The position numbers and the translations under genes are program-made. 64,000 bases of DNA from a phage: the sequence record PZ452612.1; one strand, given 5' to 3'. A model generated the notes under the pieces. It did not search any database, was not told the origin of the DNA, and saw only the letters and a program-made list of their open reading frames with translations. Below are positions 1 to 46,127 of the stretch, piece by piece (the first letter of the stretch is position 1; each line of letters begins with the position of its first letter).

Positions 1-1098
1 TGCTAACCCGTTTTTAGATAATTGACGTTTATAATATCTTTCACAATATGTACACGTCGTCCCGCAGATTTCATTAGCACAATCGAAATCTGGATGTCTG
101 AACCACCTTTTTTCTAAAAAGCCATCTAACAAAGAGGTTTCAATATTTACTGTATGTGAAAACTCAGTTTCGTTTTCAAGAGTGAAAATAGTCTCTAAAG
201 GCTTCCACAGTTCTAACAAATTACCTTCAAACTTTTCAGAAGCGTATGCTTCAAGAACTTTCAAAATGTAGTCTGTGCTACCTGTACGTCCTGAAACTTT
301 GAATTGAGTGATACCAATATCATTATAAAGTTTCAAATCTTGAGGACGAACAAAACGAGTTCTCAACCAGTTAAATGGGTCTGTATCACGAGCTTTAATA
401 CAGTGCTGCATAGGATATCCGTTTAAGGATTTAGCATCATCAGCTGTAACATCAGTACTATGGAAAATATAGCAAGAGTCACGATAGCTACAATGTGTTG
501 TATACCCTTTACCAGCATTAGAACAGAACTCATTTACAAGAACTTCAAATATTATATTGTTCTTATTGCAAAACTCTGCTGCACGCTTCAGGAAAGAAAC
601 TGAACGGTTCTTATGAATTCCACAGCAGACCTTTTTGATATTATACTGGTCATGCAAGTATTTGATTTGAGTTACAGCATCGACATGTAGAATTGTTGAA
701 ACTTCAATCTCAATGTCTTTATTGACTTCACGAACAATTTCCATAACAACAGGGTTAGCGATAGTAATACGCCATACGCCTATTGACCAAAGATACTGAA
801 CATAATCCTGAATAGCTTTCTTCTTCCACCCAACTAGTTCTCTTTTTGAACCAGGATTTATCGTGTTGAGTGTATAGTTAAAGCAAATACCTAATTCGTT
901 ACAACGTTTAACGTAATCTTCTAACATCTTTTTGTCAACGTCAGGAAGCCTAAAATCAGGTCTGGCTGCTACAAAAGCCATTTCTCTTGTAGAGCCGTAT
1001 ACTTCGTTTATCAAGCTATTAGGATAAGTTTTATTGAGCTCTACGATTTTATCAAGAAGAGCTAAATCAAAATTCGTTCCAATTTTAAAAGTATTCAT
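1..1098 (-). CDS. Hypothetical Cys-rich protein, partial (C-terminus runs off the window start); contains CX3CX2C near the visible end
   Basis: Manual reverse-complement translation from ATG at 1098: MNTFKIGTNFDLALLDKIVELNK...DFDCANEICGTTCTYCERYYKRQLSKNGLA, open to position 1. Not in the ORF track because it is open-ended. No family recognised. Confidence 0.5.
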   Translation of the reverse strand, partial: MNTFKIGTNFDLALLDKIVELNKTYPNSLINEVYGSTREMAFVAARPDFRLPDVDKKMLEDYVKRCNELGICFNYTLNTINPGSKRELVGWKKKAIQDYVQYLWSIGVWRITIANPVVMEIVREVNKDIEIEVSTILHVDAVTQIKYLHDQYNIKKVCCGIHKNRSVSFLKRAAEFCNKNNIIFEVLVNEFCSNAGKGYTTHCSYRDSCYIFHSTDVTADDAKSLNGYPMQHCIKARDTDPFNWLRTRFVRPQDLKLYNDIGITQFKVSGRTGSTDYILKVLEAYASEKFEGNLLELWKPLETIFTLENETEFSHTVNIETSLLDGFLEKRWFRHPDFDCANEICGTTCTYCERYYKRQLSKNGLA

Positions 1099-1154
1099 TT
1101 TTTTGCATCTCACGTTAATTGATGCGATGGTTTTTGCAGGTCTTACTTAAATTA

Positions 1155-1541
1155 TTATAGATTCGGTTTATATGATTTAAATGTTTCGAATTCGCCTTTA
1201 TTCATAAGAGCTTTGAATTCGTCAGGACGCATAGCTTTGTCGTCGATAATCCAATCATATACTGGTTTATGTGTTAGCAAATTATGGTACTTCAAACCAA
1301 TGTTTTCCAAGTTCTGAATCAGACTTGGGAGAATGTCAATTGCTATACGACCAGGACCTACTGACTTCATACCGCGAGCAGTGTAAAGCGTTATGGTATG
1401 CCCTGCATCATACAGGGCATTAATAGCAGTCACCATTTCGACGTCTGGTTTGAAGTTCACGTAATCACGATTGTTATTCCACTCTGTTATACAATCATCG
1501 ACATCAAAACAAAGATTAAGCATGTTTTCTACACGGTGCAT
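1155..1541 (-). CDS. HAD-superfamily phosphatase-like protein
   Basis: DxD motif FDVDDCIT near the N-terminus and a later IIDDKA motif fit HAD motifs I and IV. Start placed at the internal Met whose ATG overlaps the upstream stop (TAATG coupling); the track ORF extends to 1556. Confidence 0.5.
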   Translation of the reverse strand: MHRVENMLNLCFDVDDCITEWNNNRDYVNFKPDVEMVTAINALYDAGHTITLYTARGMKSVGPGRIAIDILPSLIQNLENIGLKYHNLLTHKPVYDWIIDDKAMRPDEFKALMNKGEFETFKSYKPNL

Positions 1542-3226
1542 TAGATTCGTTCCCATTGATGAGTGATATCGCCACCGATTGGACGATAAGAAACACCAGT
1601 TTCTTTATCAGTTAGTACCCATTTACCAGGATTTTTTGTAATCAGAGTAGCCGTTACAGGTTCTGCTACGTCATAACTAATAGAGCCGTCCTGAAGTACA
1701 CGGCCCATGTTACGTAATTGCTTAGTCAGAAGTTCCATACCTTTATAATATGCGGCTACCGCTTTAAGTGGATTATTCTTGAAATAACCACCTAATGCAA
1801 TCCAGATAATTGCTACAGCCAAATGATGATACTCGTTAAACGAACTCATCTTTCCATATTTGTAAACTAATGGATTGATGTTAATAGTCACATTACAAGT
1901 TGTTTCGTCAATAGTAAACTGTCCCCAGGTCGGATTAGCGTTGAATTCATCATAACCTGAAACAGCATAAAGCACTTTAGCTTCATCATACAATTTTGGC
2001 CCGTAAATCTTGGTTTCGCCAAAATATCCACGAGGGTCGATAAACTTGACTTCGCCGTTATCAGTAATCATAGTATTACTGAAGTTCGGGTCACCGTGAA
2101 TAACAGAGTACTGTCCCTGAGAACGGGTATGATAACGAATAAGATGTTCTAAAGCTTGCTTCAGCATTGGCTTCAGACGTCCAATCTTAGTGTAGTTCAC
2201 GTGTGTGATTTTACCAAATGAATCAATCAATGGCTGAATGCTTTCACAACGATCAATAACTTTCGTATAGAACTCTTTAGTGAAATCACGGCGAACAGTT
2301 TCAGGACTTACAAAATAAGTGTCTGTGCTGAATTTCAGTGCATCTAAAATTGCATCAACAATTTGTGGACGAGCAAGACTTGATTTGGATTTAATATATT
2401 CAAATGCTGGCTTACCTTTAATACGTTCCATTTCAAAATTATTTTCATTTACCGAAACTAACTGAGGAACTGAATCTGATTTCACTTTCAAATACCATGA
2501 AATCTCATCTTTTTGAAGAGCTCGACCTTGTTCGGTTAACGCGAATTTAGTTACAGTTTCTTCGCCAATTTCAACTGCATTAAAACTACGATTAAGTTCA
2601 CGAACTTCATGAGCTTTTTCAAGTTTAGGCATATCACCTAAATCAATTAGATTCATAAGCTCTGATTTATTGAATGCACTGCCGTAAAGGAATTCTACGA
2701 AATCACGTCCTTTGCAGTATTCATGAATTTCCTCATCAGTAGAACCCATGTAGAATTCCCAGTCTTTGAACTGATAAATTCCTACAACATTACCGCCTGT
2801 TGAACCTACGTTAGTGATATTTTCACCATCGAAATTATATCGACATTCATCACCCTTAACATAGATTGCGTTAACATTCCAAGACCATGAACCAAAATCA
2901 GGAATAATATCACACCAGTTAACAATTACGTTATGGCCATCTAAATCTTTGTATAATTTAGCAAGAGCATAAGCAGAACCATACGCTTCATCAACTGTAC
3001 GAATAGTCACATTGAACCCTTCTTGCTCGCAATAAGCTCGAACAGTTTCAGCAAATTTTGAATGAACTACTACAATAATTTCATCTGCGCCAAGGTCAGA
3101 ATAAATTGTATACAAATTGCTCAGAATAGTGTCTTGTTTATAGTTAACAAGAACTTTTGGAATATGATGCGTTATTGGATACAAACGAGTTGCCAGTCCA
3201 GCACCAAGAATAACAGCTTTTTTCAT
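1541..3226 (-). CDS. Bifunctional sugar-1-phosphate nucleotidyltransferase (N-terminal) / sugar kinase (C-terminal, APH/choline-kinase-like)
   Basis: N-terminus MKKAVILGAGLATRLYP matches the GxGxR loop of NTP-transferases. C-terminal half has IHGDPNFSNTMITDNGEVKFIDPRGYFG, an HGD...N...ID catalytic loop typical of phosphotransferase-fold kinases. 561 aa. Confidence 0.6.
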   Translation of the reverse strand: MKKAVILGAGLATRLYPITHHIPKVLVNYKQDTILSNLYTIYSDLGADEIIVVVHSKFAETVRAYCEQEGFNVTIRTVDEAYGSAYALAKLYKDLDGHNVIVNWCDIIPDFGSWSWNVNAIYVKGDECRYNFDGENITNVGSTGGNVVGIYQFKDWEFYMGSTDEEIHEYCKGRDFVEFLYGSAFNKSELMNLIDLGDMPKLEKAHEVRELNRSFNAVEIGEETVTKFALTEQGRALQKDEISWYLKVKSDSVPQLVSVNENNFEMERIKGKPAFEYIKSKSSLARPQIVDAILDALKFSTDTYFVSPETVRRDFTKEFYTKVIDRCESIQPLIDSFGKITHVNYTKIGRLKPMLKQALEHLIRYHTRSQGQYSVIHGDPNFSNTMITDNGEVKFIDPRGYFGETKIYGPKLYDEAKVLYAVSGYDEFNANPTWGQFTIDETTCNVTININPLVYKYGKMSSFNEYHHLAVAIIWIALGGYFKNNPLKAVAAYYKGMELLTKQLRNMGRVLQDGSISYDVAEPVTATLITKNPGKWVLTDKETGVSYRPIGGDITHQWERI

Positions 3227-3267
3227 GTTGTGGTCCTCATTGGTAAGTAGGTGTATTGTACACTATT

Positions 3268-3411
3268 CTAGTTAAAGCATTCATACTTTGCTTGTAGTCC
3301 AATCATAATCCATCCAATTACAAGTGTTGGAATCATTACTGGAGCCGTTAAGCTCCAGTAGATAGTCATGACAAGCATCAATAGTAAAAGTCCTATTGTT
3401 ATTGCTTTCAT
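3268..3411 (-). CDS. Small hydrophobic protein (47 aa), translationally coupled to the upstream isomerase gene
   Basis: Manual translation MKAITIGLLLLMLVMTIYWSLTAPVMIPTLVIGWIMIGLQAKYECFN; its ATG overlaps the stop of 3408..4043 (ATGA). Sits where T4 has imm/imm.1, but no sequence match is claimed. Confidence 0.3.
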   Translation of the reverse strand: MKAITIGLLLLMLVMTIYWSLTAPVMIPTLVIGWIMIGLQAKYECFN

Positions 3412-4043
3412 TGTTCGCCTCGTAACATGGCACCTAGTGCACCGCCTGGATGGAACTTAAGAAAGTCATTAGAGGTAAATCCACGTTCAGACGAAAGGTT
3501 GATAGCAAACGTATCGATAAGCGCTAACAACAATGTAGTGGACATAGTCGGAGCCAGAGAATTCTCATCAACCTCTACCGCGATGCCTGTACAGAAAGAG
3601 TAATCAAAAAGGGCTTCATTTTCTTGCGGAATGTCTGGGTTACAATGCAACAGAATCTGTTTGACATTTGGACGAATCATTTTAAGATGCTTAGCCACGC
3701 CTATCATTTCTTCAGTCTTACCAGAACGACTAATATGAATCAACACATCATTAGGCGCAATGAATCCTGCATCACCGTGAGAATAATGCCCAGTGTTCAA
3801 GTACATACTCGGGATACCGAGTGAAGCAAATGTCTCAGAAGCTTTAGTTGCAATATTAGCATTCTTACCAACACCTGTAATAATTACTCGGCTTTCATAA
3901 TTACTAAGTCCAGGGCGTCGAAGAGTTTCTAGAATAGCATTATAACGAGCAGGGTTTTGACTAATTACTTTGGCCATAGCGGCCAAAGAAGAAGCTTGTT
4001 TTATGATTGCGTCAATAGCGATAGTAATAGGAGTAGTTTTCAT
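3408..4043 (-). CDS. SIS-domain sugar-phosphate isomerase (arabinose-5-phosphate isomerase / phosphoheptose isomerase-like)
   Basis: 211 aa with VIITGVGKNANIATKASETFASLGIP, a SIS phosphosugar-binding signature. Lies directly downstream of gene 43. Confidence 0.6.
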   Translation of the reverse strand: MKTTPITIAIDAIIKQASSLAAMAKVISQNPARYNAILETLRRPGLSNYESRVIITGVGKNANIATKASETFASLGIPSMYLNTGHYSHGDAGFIAPNDVLIHISRSGKTEEMIGVAKHLKMIRPNVKQILLHCNPDIPQENEALFDYSFCTGIAVEVDENSLAPTMSTTLLLALIDTFAINLSSERGFTSNDFLKFHPGGALGAMLRGEQ

Positions 4044-4083
4044 ATTTCTCTCATTTAATTAGTTTACCGTCCATGACATTATA

Positions 4084-6795
4084 TCAAAAATCGAACATAT
4101 CGAACAGAGATGCTTTCTTCTCGTAATCGAGTTTCGCTGCTGATGTGAATCCTTCAAGTGGTTTAATAAATGTCTTCTCAAGGAGAACAGTGTAGTCCAT
4201 CCAATGAAGTACGTCATCTTTAATTAAATCTGTGATTTCAGTACCAGAAGGCCATGCGATACATTTATCACCGAACGGGTTTCCTTCACGTAAAGGCAGA
4301 ACATATACTTTTTCACCTTCTACAACTTGTGGAGCATCAATATTACCTTTGATAGCTCTGTTATATGTCAGAATTCCACGAATATGGAACGGACATTTAG
4401 GACCAGGGAATCCACCTACATCATATTTAGCAATGTTATTCGCAGAAGATACCGACGCGATGCTAATATAATTCAATTGACGGAATTCTTTTTCAAACTC
4501 TTTAAAATATTCTTGTAATGATTCTTCACCTTCTTGAAGCATACGACGAATACATTCTTTAAGAGCTTTCTGTACTGCTTTAGGGGTCGAAGATTTCTGA
4601 GTCTCTAGACCCATGATTTTGAGTTTAGGCTCAGCGTAACGAGTACCTTCCATATCCCACACGTTTAATGCGTAACGTTTCTTACCAGTCCAGAATCCAC
4701 CAATACCTTTAGAACCGAGCGGAGGACCAGCGATAGCTTCTCGGTCCATGAACATTAAGTGTTGTTTATTGTTCATGTATTCACACATTTCACGGAAACC
4801 TCTATCAATAGCAGGTTCCATACGTTCACGAGCGAACTTATCTAAGAAGTCTACCCAATGGTTGGTATCACGGAATTTAGATTCACCAACCTTATCGATA
4901 ATTTTATCAGCAGATACGTAAATAGAGTCTGTATCACCATAAAGAACGAAAGCTTCACCTTCTGTACCACAAACTTCGTTCAGATATTCATTAACTTTAC
5001 GTTCAATCCACTGTAAAGCCATTTGACCAAATGTTGTGATTGCAGTAGCATTACGCAAATCGTAATAACGGAACCAAACGTTGCCAAGTGCACCATAAAG
5101 TGAGTTGATAAGCAATTTACGGTTAATTTGTGCAGTCATACCTGCAACTTCAGTACGTTGAGCTCTAAACAACATTTCATTAAGAGATTTAGCAGACAAC
5201 TTTTTAATCTTTTCTTTAATCTCGTCAGTGAAGTCGAAACGATAATCAACATCTAATGGTTCGTCAACAGAAAGATTAGGATTATGCAACGCCTCTTTAA
5301 TTATTTCACCATTACGTTGAGCCGCAAGCATATAACCTTTATGTTCTTTACGTTGATTAAAGACCTTAGTGATTTCAGTTGGAACTACACCATCACGGTC
5401 TTTATAATACATCATGCCATTAGGAGAACAACTGTACACATCTGAAGGACGTTCAGCGATTGCGTTAATATAATCATGCAGTGGAGCTACTTTAAACGTT
5501 CCTGCTATTGTTTCCGGGCTAATATTCACTTGGCGAATAATACTTGGATACAGAGATGTAAGGTCGAAACTCATTACATATTTGTATCGATTTGGAATAG
5601 GTTCCTTAACAAAAGCGCCAGGATAAGGTTGAACCGGGTGAGAACGACCTTGTGGAATCACCTTGTTCTGCTCTTTAAGGCTATTAAAAATAATAGCATC
5701 CCATGTTTTAATTGGGCTAAACACAGATTGAATCTGTATCTTAGCATAATAACCCATGTCCAAACTCAAGTTGATGAACTGACGCTTAGCATCAATTTGC
5801 AATACACGATACACGTCGATAATGTTATAAGAAATATATCGTTGGTGATTGCTTTCACGAAGCTTAGAAATAGGGCCGTCATATTTCAGTTTACCAACGT
5901 TCAATTCAAATTCTGAAATGTAATCTAGAGAATACGACGGTTGATTGGTAAAAGAGAATTTTTTGTAAAGGTCGATATAATCAAGAACAGAGATACCGAA
6001 CAATGTAATGATTTCACGAGAACCATACATGTTTTCGATAACTTTAACACGAGTTTTACGATGCGGTGATAAACGTTTCGCAGTAGATTCGCCAAAAATA
6101 TTCTTGATTCGGTTATACACATATGGAATATCAAATGACTCAACGTTCCATCCAGTCAAAATGACAGGAGTTTTCTGTTGCCAGAAGTTGAGATATTCCA
6201 TCAACAATTCTTTTTCGTTATCGAACGGCATATAAATGATTTTATCGATAATTTCAGATGGAACTTCATCACCGCCTTGTTCTTGAAGCTTAGCAGCGAT
6301 TTCAATAGACCATTCTTCTACATTACCATATGGAGAATTCAATAGATCAAATACGTAGAACCTGTCGTCAATTGAGTCATAATGGGTGATAGCATCAATC
6401 GGATGTTTTGCTTGTGATGGCTCAGGGAACCCATCCGGAGATGTTACTTCGATGTCGAAGTTAGCCACACGAATTTTTGTATGGTCGTATTTGATTTCAT
6501 AGTTATAAGTGTCAGACAAATACGCCAATTTGAAATCGTCCATGCCAAGTGCTTCAAGTCCGATATCTTCCATGCGTTTAATCCATTGGGAGGCATCACG
6601 CATATTAGCGAACAACTTACGAGTACACGGCTTACCGTAGATATCGAAATATTTCGTAGCCTGACTTTCCGGACAATGAGCAAACAGTGATGGTTTATAT
6701 TCTACTTCACGAGTACGTTCACGGCCATTAGAATCGATGTAACGTTCAAAAATTGAATCACCAATCTGTTCAACCGTTAAGTAAAATTCTTTCAT
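4084..6795 (-). CDS. 43: DNA polymerase (family B), gp43
   Basis: 903 aa, MKEFYLTVEQIGDSIFERYIDSNGRERTREVEYKPSLFAHCPESQ... Contains exo motifs (FDIEV, YNIIDVYRV) and pol motifs (DTDS, KKRYA). Matches the RB69 gp43 sequence as recalled. Confidence 0.97.
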   Translation of the reverse strand: MKEFYLTVEQIGDSIFERYIDSNGRERTREVEYKPSLFAHCPESQATKYFDIYGKPCTRKLFANMRDASQWIKRMEDIGLEALGMDDFKLAYLSDTYNYEIKYDHTKIRVANFDIEVTSPDGFPEPSQAKHPIDAITHYDSIDDRFYVFDLLNSPYGNVEEWSIEIAAKLQEQGGDEVPSEIIDKIIYMPFDNEKELLMEYLNFWQQKTPVILTGWNVESFDIPYVYNRIKNIFGESTAKRLSPHRKTRVKVIENMYGSREIITLFGISVLDYIDLYKKFSFTNQPSYSLDYISEFELNVGKLKYDGPISKLRESNHQRYISYNIIDVYRVLQIDAKRQFINLSLDMGYYAKIQIQSVFSPIKTWDAIIFNSLKEQNKVIPQGRSHPVQPYPGAFVKEPIPNRYKYVMSFDLTSLYPSIIRQVNISPETIAGTFKVAPLHDYINAIAERPSDVYSCSPNGMMYYKDRDGVVPTEITKVFNQRKEHKGYMLAAQRNGEIIKEALHNPNLSVDEPLDVDYRFDFTDEIKEKIKKLSAKSLNEMLFRAQRTEVAGMTAQINRKLLINSLYGALGNVWFRYYDLRNATAITTFGQMALQWIERKVNEYLNEVCGTEGEAFVLYGDTDSIYVSADKIIDKVGESKFRDTNHWVDFLDKFARERMEPAIDRGFREMCEYMNNKQHLMFMDREAIAGPPLGSKGIGGFWTGKKRYALNVWDMEGTRYAEPKLKIMGLETQKSSTPKAVQKALKECIRRMLQEGEESLQEYFKEFEKEFRQLNYISIASVSSANNIAKYDVGGFPGPKCPFHIRGILTYNRAIKGNIDAPQVVEGEKVYVLPLREGNPFGDKCIAWPSGTEITDLIKDDVLHWMDYTVLLEKTFIKPLEGFTSAAKLDYEKKASLFDMFDF

Positions 6796-6807
6796 TTAAT
6801 TTCCTTT

Positions 6808-6823
6808 AGACGAGTTATTGTCT
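6808..6823 (-). promoter_or_regulatory. Putative gp43 translational operator hairpin (stem AGAC/GUCU, 8-nt loop AAUAACUC) just 5' of the gene 43 Shine-Dalgarno
   Basis: mRNA reads AGACAAUAACUCGUCU AAAGGAAAUUAA AUG. The loop sequence and position match the T4-type gp43 autoregulatory operator architecture. Confidence 0.5.
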
Positions 6824-6853
6824 TTTGTTTGTTGATGAACTTATTATACTCCA

Positions 6854-6873
6854 AATGGGACCGAAGTCCCATT
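6854..6873 (-). other. Stable hairpin (AUGGGAC-UUCG-GUCCCAU) immediately after the regA stop, followed by GGAGUAUAAU
   Basis: Perfect 7-bp inverted repeat with a UUCG tetraloop seen in sequence; no long U-tract follows. Confidence 0.4.
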
Positions 6874-6876
6874 GCT

Positions 6877-7245
6877 TTAATTACCAATTGTATATTTTGC
6901 TTTCAAAGTCCAGTCATCTTTCTGTTTAAAAGAGATAACACGGAAGTTATTAGTCAGGCCAAACAGATCTTCACGAGCAGAGTCTTCAATAACAATCAAT
7001 CCCCAGTCTTCAAGCAACTGAGCAATCGAATCACGTCGCTGATAGTCTTCACCATCAATATCAACCTGACGTCCGTCCATACGCAGCATTTCTTTAAAGT
7101 GGACGATGTAATATTTACCTTGCTTTTGGAGGATATGACAAGACTGGTAAAGGACTTTATCCTTGTTATTAGCGATGCCCATACGGGTTAGAGTCTCTTT
7201 GACTTTCAGAAAATCTTCAGGGTTCTTCAATTTAATTTCAATCAT
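6877..7245 (-). CDS. regA: Translational repressor RegA
   Basis: MIEIKLKNPEDFLKVKETLTRMGIANNKDKVLYQSCHILQK... matches T4 RegA as recalled; syntenic between 62 and 43. Start taken at the internal Met. Confidence 0.85.
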   Translation of the reverse strand: MIEIKLKNPEDFLKVKETLTRMGIANNKDKVLYQSCHILQKQGKYYIVHFKEMLRMDGRQVDIDGEDYQRRDSIAQLLEDWGLIVIEDSAREDLFGLTNNFRVISFKQKDDWTLKAKYTIGN

Positions 7246-7247
7246 TT

Positions 7248-7811
7248 TTACCATTCCAATGCTAATTTTTTAAATTGTTTTTGTTCTTTTACGTTTTTAG
7301 TAACTTCTTTGAGAAATTCATCAGTGACCATGGCCTTCAGTTCTTTAAGGACTATTGGCAGCTTGTTATTTTTTTCAAGGAGCCGCTTATACTCGGTAGC
7401 ATCATTCATGTTGATTGTGTAATGTTTCATCAACAGTTTGATAACTAGTAACTCTGAAGTGTCTTCGACTAGTTTAGCCCATTTAGAGAATCGACGACCA
7501 CGCGGAATTGCCGCCATCATATAGTTGAAGTGCGCTTCATCACTTAATTCAGAACCGACTAAGTTCATCATGTAAACGGCTGGCATACATTCTGGAAACT
7601 GGGATAACGAGTTCTCAACCATAAATTTTGAGTAGTCGACCTGAGCAATTGACATAGATTTCTTTTCATTAATAGCATTAATGATTTTAAAGAATTCATT
7701 CTCAGGTTTTTCTTTAAACATATCAGCACATTTTTGAATCGCATCAGCGTCATTAGACTTCCATGCAATTTGGTGCTCGTTAAGCTGGACGTCATCATCG
7801 AATAAGTTCAT
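7248..7811 (-). CDS. 62: Clamp loader small subunit gp62
   Basis: 187 aa, same length as T4 gp62; position between 44 and regA. Confidence 0.8.
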
Positions 7812-43529: not shown

Positions 43530-44120
43530 TTAACGCAAGGAAGGGTGTCTAGAAATGGATTTAGATTCGACTGCTTGACGTGGTTGTTGAGATACAATGA
43601 CTTCACCATCCTTTTCTATCGTCATATACGCATAGTGAATAGTTGCTACGCACGTAACGGCAGGGTCAGAATCTTCAGTGTAACTAAATTCAATTTCGCT
43701 CAGATCGGAAATCCATGGTTTATAGAAATTTGCCGTCAAAACTACTTCTGTCTTATTGTTATTTAAAATGTGCAAAGTAACAAACTCAGGACCATCGGAG
43801 TGGGCAGTATTATGTCCGGTTATATAGTTATTAGTGCTGAGCATCCATTTATACATGTTCATCCAGGACGTCATGTCTTCATCAACTATAAATCGTACAA
43901 TAAAAGGGTCGTATTCAAATGTGGTGCCTGCACGCATTGCACGTCCTAACCCCATTGTGCCTGTCACAGTTTCAACAACAGGAATTCTCACACCTGGCAA
44001 CGGTGCCGTTTGAGCATTGAGCACAAAACCCGAAGTTCGTGTACTATCTGGGATATCCACAACAAAGTTTGTTATATTTGTTTGGTTAAAAATCTGTCTC
44101 GTTGGACGAGTCATAAGCAC
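43530..44120 (-). CDS. 3: Tail completion / sheath stabiliser gp3 (by synteny)
   Basis: 196 aa ORF between gp1 and gp2. Confidence 0.55.
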   Translation of the reverse strand: MLMTRPTRQIFNQTNITNFVVDIPDSTRTSGFVLNAQTAPLPGVRIPVVETVTGTMGLGRAMRAGTTFEYDPFIVRFIVDEDMTSWMNMYKWMLSTNNYITGHNTAHSDGPEFVTLHILNNNKTEVVLTANFYKPWISDLSEIEFSYTEDSDPAVTCVATIHYAYMTIEKDGEVIVSQQPRQAVESKSISRHPSLR

Positions 44121-44216
44121 CTCAAAAACGCTTTAATAAAAATGCAGTATAATGGTTTTAGGTCTCTTCCATTAATCTGGTTCAACAGAATATCAGAAGA
44201 ACGGAAGAGAATAGAA

Positions 44217-45038
44217 TTAAGATTTCCAAACAGTATTCGCAGAGAAACGTTTTCCTTTTGACATAAATTGCTGAGTAGGTAACATGATTATGTTAGCCCA
44301 GTCTTTAGGAGCTATTTCTGTTATTGTTCCTCTAATGTGGCCTGGCAGGTATGCTTTAATCATTTTGTCCGCACCTTGAAATCCTTTCACCTTGCTCCAG
44401 TCTATCTTCAACTTTGTGTTATTAGTAATAGTAGTTGTGCTAGCATATTGCTTCAGCAATTCTTCAAGAAACTGTTGTCGTGCTTTAGGTGGGATATAGT
44501 GCAAGTTTAACCCATACATCAAATTATGTTTACCTAATCCTAAATAAATAATCAAAGGATATCTGTCCCAATACGGCAGAGTATCTTTATGTTTAGCATC
44601 ATACACGTAAGTATAAATTTTGCCTGGCGTAGGCTTGACTACTTTATGACCTTTTACACTTTTCTTAATTGTTTCAACAAACCACTTAGATGATTTGTTG
44701 TTTACTGCTGCGCCTTCATTTCTAATCTTTTCTCGTATTGAACTGCGAAACGAGTTTATCATCAGAAGTTGACGTTCTTGCTTATTGAGTTTATTTTTAG
44801 GTTTAGATTCAAGCGTTTCAATTTTCTGTGCAGTCTTAATAGATGATGCATATCTAGACATTGCAGATGTAAACGACGAGTATTTTATTCCTTTTGATTC
44901 TGCAAATGCTTTTGCAGTGATTCCTTTCTCTTTAGCTTTCTTGTATTCTAATCCTATCTCAATCCATTTTCTTTCATTCATAGACTGAGCAATCTTAGGG
45001 GCTTGTACGCCTTCAGATATAATTTGGAATATGCTCAT
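44217..45038 (-). CDS. 2: DNA end-protector protein gp2
   Basis: 273 aa ORF, basic, in the T4 gene 2 position and size. Confidence 0.8.
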
Positions 45039-45040
45039 AA

Positions 45041-45490
45041 TTACCCCTTGTATCCGAGTTTTCTAAGACCATCTTCGGTTAGAACTCGAAATTTTATATT
45101 TCTCTTTTCAGCAACAGCTGAGGCAGCTTTCCATTTGTCACAGTTCACAGACCAGGTATATATTTCATTCATATAACGTTTCTTTGCTGCGGTAGTAAGA
45201 TTTGCGGGCTTAATAGGTGGTTGAGTTTCTTTCTTTGGTTTTATTTCTACAAAGAACTCTTGACCTGATGCATCTTTCATCCATATGTCCATATAGTATC
45301 GACGTTTCTTACCTTCAGCATTACAAAAATATGGAATTACTGCTGTTTCACTACCCCATGCAATAATTTCTGGATTTTTATCCAACCATTCGAAAAAGAA
45401 TTTTTCCCAGTTTGAACGATACGTTATTTTGGTATGGTCTCCACGGTATTTTTTTAAATTTTTTGGGACCCATTTACCAGAGTAGGCCAT
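45041..45490 (-). CDS. 4: Head completion protein gp4
   Basis: Start at the internal Met [18 protein letters not shown]...; the 48-codon N-terminal extension in the track ORF covers the promoter region. Confidence 0.8.
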
Positions 45491-45502
45491 GTTGTCCTCC
45501 TT

Positions 45503-45510
45503 ATAAATAG
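45503..45510 (+). promoter_or_regulatory. Late promoter TATAAATA for gene 53
   Basis: Exact TATAAATA on the plus strand 41 nt upstream of the gene 53 ATG. Confidence 0.6.
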
Positions 45511-45516
45511 TATTAT

Positions 45517-45524
45517 TATTTATA
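45517..45524 (-). promoter_or_regulatory. Late promoter TATAAATA for genes 4-2-3
   Basis: Exact TATAAATA on the minus strand 27 nt upstream of the gp4 ATG. Confidence 0.55.
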
Positions 45525-45551
45525 CCAATTTCATATTGGAAGGAGACTATC

Positions 45552-46127
45552 TTGTTATTTACATTCTTCGACCCAATAGGATATAGTGCTAAAACAGTTG
45601 ATAAGAATGCACCTACTATTCCTATGACAGACATATTTCGTAACTATAAAGAGTACTTTAAGCGTGTGGCTGCCAATTATAGATTACGTTCTTATTATAT
45701 TAAAGGCTCTCCGCGTCCTGAAGAACTAGCGAATATCATTTATGGCAACCCTCAATTATACTGGGTCCTTTTGATGTGCAACGATAACTACGACCCGTAT
45801 TATGGTTGGATTACATCTCAGGAAGCAGCGTATCAAGCTTCTATTCAGAAATATGCTAATGCTGGCGGCGACCAAGTTCTTTATCATATTAATGAAAATC
45901 GTGAGAAATTTTACAATTTGGTTTCATATCCGGACGAGCCTTTAGTGTGGTATGATAAAGGTGATGAAGCTCGTAAGTATCCGCAATATAAAGGACCTTT
46001 AGCTGCAGTAGATACTTATGAAGCTGCAGTATTAGATAATGAAAAACTTCGTAAAATAAAAATTGTTGCAAAAGAAGATATAAACTCGTTTATCACAGAT
46101 TTGATTCGTGAGATGGAGATTGCATAA
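45552..46127 (+). CDS. 53: Baseplate wedge protein gp53
   Basis: 191 aa ORF directly upstream of and overlapping gene 5. Confidence 0.85.
   Translation: MLFTFFDPIGYSAKTVDKNAPTIPMTDIFRNYKEYFKRVAANYRLRSYYIKGSPRPEELANIIYGNPQLYWVLLMCNDNYDPYYGWITSQEAAYQASIQKYANAGGDQVLYHINENREKFYNLVSYPDEPLVWYDKGDEARKYPQYKGPLAAVDTYEAAVLDNEKLRKIKIVAKEDINSFITDLIREMEIA

Follow-up and report, generated by a model that had tools for sequence, protein, structure and literature searches.

The phage DNA analysed here, a stretch of 64,000 nucleotides (sequence record PZ452612.1, hereafter called the window), encodes a 211 aa SIS-domain protein that is very probably a single-domain D-arabinose-5-phosphate (A5P) isomerase (API, EC 5.3.1.13 type) supplying A5P for the arabinosylation of the phage DNA. 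The gene and its surroundings are organized as follows:

1-1098, minus strand: U32-family ('peptidase U32') gene, the counterpart of RB69 gp50, with its left end cut by the window edge (from the annotation of an identical record)
1155-1556 (RefSeq start 1541), minus strand: HAD-like phosphatase of 128-133 aa (TIGR01689), the counterpart of RB69 gp51
1541-3226, minus strand: 561 aa nucleotidyltransferase (NT)/kinase protein, predicted to consist of an N-terminal sugar-1-phosphate nucleotidyltransferase and a C-terminal APH/choline-kinase-like domain (Pfam, NCBIfam, phrog_4098)
3268-3411, minus strand: small hydrophobic ORF of 47 aa, MKAITIGLLLLMLVMTIYWSLTAPVMIPTLVIGWIMIGLQAKYECFN (a CDS in NC_041864; phrog_3610, E=7e-27)
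3408-4043, minus strand: predicted SIS-domain A5P isomerase gene, 211 aa (ATG-to-stop ORF; PF01380, PHROG 5670)
4044-4083, minus strand: spacer of 40 nt between the gp43 stop and the start of the SIS gene (direct sequence reading)
4084-6795: T4-type DNA polymerase gp43, followed by regA, gp62, gp44 and gp45

The 211 aa ORF is confirmed as a real and well-conserved SIS-domain gene with exact coordinates, on evidence that goes far beyond chance. The Pfam SIS profile (PF01380) matches residues 51-181 with E=1e-10 and 41.9 bits (cutoff 25), and the Pfam scan of the protein returned no other domain. PHROG 5670, which is named 'arabinose 5-phosphate isomerase', matches over the full length with E=4e-116, and tblastn found the gene in 276 phage records. 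The initial annotation had placed an isomerase with a SIS domain at this position, quoting the peptide VIITGVGKNANIATKASETFASLGIP (residues 53-78 of the protein), and both the domain and the boundaries of the gene held up. A GAGAG sequence resembling a Shine-Dalgarno site (4052-4048) lies 4 nt 5' of the ATG, and the 47 aa ORF starts at an ATG that shares bases with the stop codon of the SIS gene (ATGA). A TGnTATAAT-like string at 4086-4078 overlaps the gp43 stop codon. Because the sigma-70-like matches in a promoter and terminator scan of positions 900-7300 were no commoner than in shuffled sequence, we treat this -10-like string as a pattern match only and claim no transcription unit.

Over positions 1-7000, the window is 98.4% identical to RB69 DNA and matches the E. 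coli O157 typing phages 3, 6 and 13 (Mosigvirus) at 100% identity. The phage is RB69-like and T4-type, and belongs with the O157 typing phages of E. coli (Mosigvirus 0157tp3). Every residue of the 211 aa protein is identical to RB69 gp55 (ORF055c, NP_861745.1), so that there is no difference at the protein level, and the gene resides in the same cassette and at the same genome position as in RB69. Its GC content (0.41) and GC3 (0.32) are close to those of gp43 and of the whole window; by these two measures no signal of recent acquisition was seen. In RefSeq, the gene carries the label kpsF.

An API role for exactly this protein is no new idea, as it has been proposed in print (2018, 2026). In 2018, Thomas et al. 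(PMC6024577) described arabinose on RB69 DNA, picked out ORF055c together with ORF53_52c as potential makers of UDP-arabinose and drew attention to bacterial proteins that join an NT/kinase and a SIS domain in one chain. The accessible text of Lee et al. 2026 (PMC13326640) revises the chemistry of RB69 DNA to mono- and di-arabosylated 5-hydroxycytosine. It shows that 5hodCMP is made by the ThyA homologue gp48, models the fused gp46:47 product as an arabinosyltransferase and proposes, in a purely computational treatment, that gp55 converts Ru5P into Araf5P, which feeds UDP-arabinofuranose. DLP3 gp83 is reported there to be 56.7% identical to RB69 gp55. According to the summary of He et al. 2026 in the same paper, the HY126 proteins AfhE (kinase and pyrophosphorylase) and AfhF (phosphatase) turn Araf5P into UDP-arabinose. 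In the virion DNA of Mosigvirus NP, the same arabinosyl-5-hydroxycytosine modification has been measured. The initial annotation had suggested that an intermediate of the pentose phosphate pathway is diverted into a phage-specific sugar. This expectation agrees with the RB69 work, by analogy with which the sugar would be D-arabinofuranose on 5-hydroxycytosine (PMC13326640, accessible text).

Sequence, profiles and predicted fold all support placing the 211 aa protein with the A5P isomerases (KdsD, c3406, B. fragilis API). A PDB sequence search gave only four matches, all of them APIs or API-like: the B. fragilis API (3etn, 2.6e-25), E. coli CFT073 c3406 (5uqi, 4e-23), the SIS domain of KdsD (2xhz, 3.5e-19) and the Listeria SIS protein 3fxa. 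The best NCBIfam models were kpsF/GutQ (2e-32) and KdsD (7e-31), with the top non-API model at 1e-6. The regulator models HexR, AlsR and MurR matched weakly (1e-6 to 3e-3) and covered the SIS part alone, and no GmhA model was found at E<=0.01. We also modelled the protein with AF2, using 46 homologues as input (pLDDT 94.8, pTM 0.90). The model has a five-strand alpha/beta core, and the N-terminal 45 residues form two helices, as is typical of APIs. Its top Foldseek matches in the PDB were 5uqi, 2xhz and 3etn (~1e-13), led by the A5P complex of c3406 (E=1.3e-13, TM 0.80/0.89); the TM values against API structures were 0.75-0.81. The non-API matches (NanR, RpiR, MurR, GmhA) had E-values of 3e-8 or weaker, in the 1e-8 to 1e-6 range, and 13-18% identity, which puts the regulators and GmhA 5-6 orders of magnitude behind the APIs. 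GmhA structures appeared at rank 39 or lower, with E ~6e-7 to 9e-7.

Of the kinship with KdsD/GutQ and GmhA that had been suggested initially, the API part therefore stands (3etn, 5uqi and 2xhz are best), but not the GmhA part. The protein has the SIS fold in common with GmhA, yet at 16-17% identity it is not a member of that family, and a GmhA identity was rejected on the NCBIfam and Foldseek scores. The possibility that the closest homologs are SIS regulators had been raised as well; catalytic APIs lead the searches, and regulators are far weaker. We rejected an identity as RpiR/MurR/HexR-type regulator, since the Pfam scan showed SIS only, with no HTH, and the matches to the SIS part were weak.

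Within the API family, the phage protein is a single-domain API rather than a KdsD/GutQ/KpsF protein in the strict sense. It has 211 aa, compared with ~320-330, no CBS domain was found by Pfam, and the score against the kpsF model (TIGR00393) was 112.9 bits, below the curated cutoff of 203.7, with positions 2-153 of 268 matched. The scores against kpsF and KdsD fall under the curated cut-offs because the phage protein corresponds to the SIS half only and does not have the tandem C-terminal CBS domains of KdsD/GutQ/KpsF, with which it shares a homologous SIS domain. Its identity to the host KdsD is ~36%. In architecture, it resembles c3406 (PDB 5uqi/5vhu) and the B. fragilis API (3etn), which are its best sequence and fold matches and which likewise have one SIS domain, a length of ~190-220 aa, no CBS pair and Lys, His and Glu at the same catalytic positions. 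These two proteins are only 34-37% identical to the phage protein, and they differ in context: the cellular enzymes supply the synthesis of Kdo or capsule, and the phage gene is part of a DNA hypermodification cassette.

The active site tells the same story. The active-site residues of E. coli KdsD, which from the KdsD and B. fragilis API structures we take to be K59, H88, E111, E152 and H193, align with K60, H89, E112, E157 and H198 of the phage protein, all five being conserved. The alignment was made against PDB fragments; 2xhz is a mutant structure with Ala in place of K59. Two histidines of 3etn likewise coincide with H89 and H198. None of the five residues varies among 46 phage homologues with identities down to 41%, and the phosphate-loop motifs GxGK and SxSGxT are equally invariant; the Ser/Thr-rich phosphate loops of the phage protein read GVGK, SRSGKT and APTxSTT. 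The catalytic Glu, His and Lys, whose absence the initial annotation had named as counter-evidence, are thus in place, and in the active-site comparison with KdsD that it had proposed, made here by alignment with PDB fragments, each of the five positions corresponded. We predict that K60, H89, E112, E157 and H198 form the catalytic set.

As had been noted before, the SIS gene lies beside DNA replication genes, namely gp43 and then regA, gp62, gp44 and gp45. On its other side, the 47 aa ORF is syntenic with the isomerase gene in relatives, and a 144 bp ORF occupies the same place after the API gene of Serratia phage CHI14. The 561 aa protein matches the Pfam family NTP_transferase (1.3e-9) and NCBIfam nucleotidyltransferases, and it has weak matches to kinase families at residues 354-409. 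Its RB69 counterpart is ORF53_52c, and the single ORF seen here agrees with the corrected RB69 sequence. This protein is the analogue of HY126 AfhE (A5P 1-kinase and UDP-arabinose pyrophosphorylase), and the HAD protein is the analogue of AfhF, which acts on Araf-1,5-P2 to give Araf-1-P. The best family of the HAD protein is the NCBIfam capsule biosynthesis phosphatase TIGR01689 (2e-13). The label 'phosphoheptose isomerase' that RefSeq and PHROG attach to it is wrong, as Pfam finds no SIS domain in it. The U32-family gene is part of the same cassette as the isomerase; its full-length protein matches Pfam Peptidase_U32 (7e-11), with a faint UbiU match and Cys-rich motifs.

Further genes of the cassette lie to the left of the window in the identical record NC_041864. 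They include a ThyA-like gene (L001 1943-2659, Pfam 2.3e-15), a 299 aa ORF (L001 1044-1943) in place of RB69 genes 46 and 47, and a thymidylate-kinase-like gene. With an NT/kinase, a HAD protein, a ThyA-like synthase and a predicted arabinosyltransferase all in the genome, the cassette appears, from its gene content, to be of the arabinosyl-5-hydroxycytosine hypermodification type (RB69 gp45-55 / Afh). D-arabinofuranose would be put onto 5-hydroxycytosine in DNA, and this would explain why the SIS gene is found among genes for replication and nucleotide metabolism. It would make the predicted isomerase the entry point that links the pentose phosphate metabolism of the host to DNA modification.

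A pathway of five steps can be proposed. The SIS enzyme would interconvert D-ribulose-5-phosphate from the host's pentose phosphate pathway and A5P, an aldose-ketose isomerization in which the five conserved residues (one Lys, two His, two Glu) would take part; this reaction is predicted from homology, from the active site and from the fold. The kinase domain of the 561 aa protein would then phosphorylate A5P at C1 to give Araf-1,5-P2, the HAD phosphatase would strip the 5-phosphate to leave Araf-1-P, and the nucleotidyltransferase domain would combine Araf-1-P with UTP to form UDP-Araf. These three steps have been shown for the HY126 analogues, as summarised in PMC13326640, where the characterised part of the Afh pathway begins at Araf5P; the predicted isomerase step would precede it. 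Here, the analogous NT/kinase and HAD phosphatase are encoded directly downstream of the isomerase. Finally, phage DNA arabinosyltransferases would attach arabinose to 5-hydroxycytosine, the substitute for cytosine. The modified base has been demonstrated in RB69 virion DNA (PMC13326640, accessible text), and by analogy with RB69 we infer that the DNA of the O157 typing phages carries arabinosylated 5-hydroxycytosine as well. This hypermodification, which was characterised recently, blocks many restriction enzymes and alters the sensitivity to modification-dependent defences. Arabinosylation would thereby protect the phage DNA against restriction and CRISPR nucleases.

The order SIS gene, small ORF, NT/kinase and HAD gene, beside a ThyA-like gene and a glycosyltransferase gene, is found in Mosigvirus, in the Winklervirus (Serratia) CHI14, in Acinetobacter phage Acj9 and also in RB69. 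Acj9p080 was considered as a U32 homologue and rejected (21% identity with long gaps, no NCBIfam match). The distant jumbo phage PAU has a SIS gene as well, paired with a homologue of the NT/kinase gene (30% identity, 2e-33). PAU gp214 failed as a HAD homologue, with no BLASTP similarity and no Pfam match, and we therefore limit the statement on PAU to the pairing of SIS and NT/kinase genes.

The NT/kinase gene is more widespread than the SIS gene (374 versus 276 phage records). Of the NT/kinase matches, 25 are in Klebsiella phages, compared with at most 3 of the SIS matches. In Dhakavirus LHE83 and Klebsiella phage HMGUkp2, the cassette (gp43, NT/kinase, HAD, kinase, (U32), ThyA-like, GT) has no SIS gene. 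A 166 aa ORF between gp43 and the NT/kinase gene of LHE83 was examined as a substitute isomerase and rejected; it has no meaningful Pfam match and belongs to phrog_1754, a family of unknown function. Since ~100 phage records carry the cassette without a SIS gene, the isomerase is an optional module that is dispensable for at least some versions of the pathway. In these phages, either the host API suffices or another sugar is used. The isomerase may serve to increase flux without being essential. The SIS-less cassettes weaken the claim that the isomerase is essential, not the claim that it is an API.

These cassettes also bear on the first of three alternatives to the API reading, all of which we disfavour. 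The protein could be a sugar-phosphate isomerase that has the API fold but uses or yields something else in the cell, for example a different pentulose or pentose phosphate, or that catalyses a later step of the pathway, while the A5P for DNA arabinosylation comes from the host KdsD/GutQ. Besides the ~100 records with the NT/kinase cassette and no SIS gene, this would accord with the identity of only ~34-37% to characterised APIs, with the different pentose borne by the related phage Thanatos, and with the accessible literature, in which we found no activity assay for gp55 or its phage homologues (He et al. 2026 being represented by its summary in PMC13326640). However, the phage protein keeps the phosphate loops and the full set of five catalytic residues known from KdsD, the structure closest in fold is that of an API with A5P in the crystal, and the sugar on RB69 DNA is arabinose, and we consider a different substrate improbable.

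As a second alternative, the gene could be an auxiliary metabolic gene of the KpsF kind, which serves Kdo/LPS or capsule synthesis of the host during infection instead of DNA modification. Its RefSeq name, the best family of the neighbouring HAD protein ('capsule biosynthesis phosphatase') and the presence of bacterial relatives of the cassette genes in capsule loci would all fit. The location of the gene does not: it sits in an early region for replication and nucleotide metabolism, together with genes for a 5hodCMP synthase and a DNA arabinosyltransferase, and no KdsA, KdsB or KdsC gene was seen in the cassette in the NC_041864 and RB69 neighbourhoods. A lytic T4-type phage would moreover gain little from building the host envelope. 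A role in Kdo or capsule synthesis is therefore very improbable. That the protein is a non-catalytic SIS sensor or regulator (RpiR/MurR/NanR-like) or a heptose isomerase of the GmhA type is hardly credible at all: such proteins do contain SIS domains and do appear as weak matches in NCBIfam (HexR, AlsR, MurR, of the order of 1e-6 to 1e-3) and Foldseek (NanR, RpiR, MurR, GmhA, 1e-8 to 1e-6), but they trail the APIs by at least 20 orders of magnitude in the sequence searches and by 5-6 in the fold search, at 13-18% identity, and the phage protein has no HTH domain in Pfam, no GmhA family at E<=0.01 and invariant API catalytic residues.

If the protein is an API, as we prefer, the question arises what it adds to the metabolism of the host. 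E. coli has its own KdsD and GutQ, and the A5P step is not strictly absent from the host. The phage isomerase would most likely serve to raise the A5P supply above the level that KdsD/GutQ provide. There are ~63,000 cytosines per duplex genome, and the burst size is taken as 100-200. With 1-2 arabinose units per cytosine, ~6e6 to 2.5e7 units would be required per infected cell in less than half an hour. Such an arabinose load would equal or exceed the amount of Kdo that the host normally needs.

It is possible, if rather doubtful, that the API without CBS domains acts as a deregulated flux valve, which escapes the host control of A5P (for example CMP-Kdo feedback) and produces a surplus of A5P to sustain the ~1e7 arabinosylations of DNA in each burst. 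If so, the lineages without an API (Dhakavirus, Klebsiella T4-likes) would depend on the host API or on another sugar, and the SIS gene would help to determine how densely the DNA is modified and how far the phage depends on its host. For the annotation of these genomes, the API reading implies that the SIS gene should be described as a probable API for DNA modification and not as a capsule kpsF, and its neighbours not as 'GlmU' and 'phosphoheptose isomerase'.

The 5-hydroxycytosine/arabinose cassette contains a U32-family gene within its bounds, which we found at the left edge of the window.

1-1098, minus strand: U32-family ('peptidase U32') gene, cut by the window edge (Pfam 7e-11, faint UbiU match)

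The complete gene lies at 2938-4098 (minus strand) of NC_041864, the identical genome record that extends further left, and encodes a Cys-rich protein whose motifs include CANEICGTTCTYC. Mosigvirus has it, as do Winklervirus CHI14 (83% identity) and, under the annotation 'peptidase', Klebsiella phage HMGUkp2; the equivalent cassette position of Acj9 lacks it. Members of the U32 family include the O2-independent hydroxylases RlhA, TrhP and UbiU/V, and the product of RlhA is 5-hydroxycytidine in 23S rRNA. The phage protein could offer an anaerobic route to 5-hydroxy-C, complementing the O2/flavin-dependent ThyA-like synthase. In Lee et al. 2026 (PMC13326640), its RB69 counterpart gp50 is given just as 'sugar or heterocycle reductase', and a link to the U32 O2-independent hydroxylases is not drawn.

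The T4-type relatives LHE83 (an Escherichia phage of the genus Dhakavirus) and HMGUkp2 carry a cassette of NT/kinase, HAD, kinase, ThyA-like and GT genes directly after gp43, and the SIS isomerase is absent from this post-gp43 cassette in both. Over all phage records, the NT/kinase occurs in 374, as against 276 for the SIS gene. Cassettes of this kind raise the question of which sugar is attached and where its precursor originates.

Two database names in the cassette are misleading. The HAD-like phosphatase (1155-1556, minus strand) is called 'phosphoheptose isomerase' by RefSeq and PHROG; it is without a SIS domain, and the family it matches best is the capsule biosynthesis phosphatase TIGR01689. 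The NT/kinase (1541-3226, minus strand) carries the annotation 'bifunctional protein GlmU', but its nucleotidyltransferase likeness is confined to about 100 N-terminal residues and the acetyltransferase domain is absent. The latter gene is a single intact ORF of 561 aa here and is split into ORF052c/053c in the RB69 reference record; likewise, an intact 299-aa ORF (NC_041864 1044-1943, minus strand) corresponds to the split ORF046c/047c. Published statements attribute the RB69 splits to sequencing errors, and the intact reading frames agree with this.

The isomerase is followed by a small ORF.

3268-3411, minus strand: 47-aa ORF, strongly hydrophobic (phrog_3610)

Its start is translationally coupled to the isomerase stop codon by an ATGA overlap. 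Serratia phage CHI14 has a 144-bp ORF at the equivalent position, and the RB69 annotation describes the region as 'similar to T4 42-imm intercistronic region'. In LHE83, by contrast, a true homologue of Imm (superinfection immunity) follows gp43 in place of this ORF.

The cumulative GC skew of the window is lowest around 44-46 kb, where the skew changes sign. This change (about 44000-46000) would be in keeping with genes passing from the minus to the plus strand there; the orientation of genes was checked for the first 12 kb.
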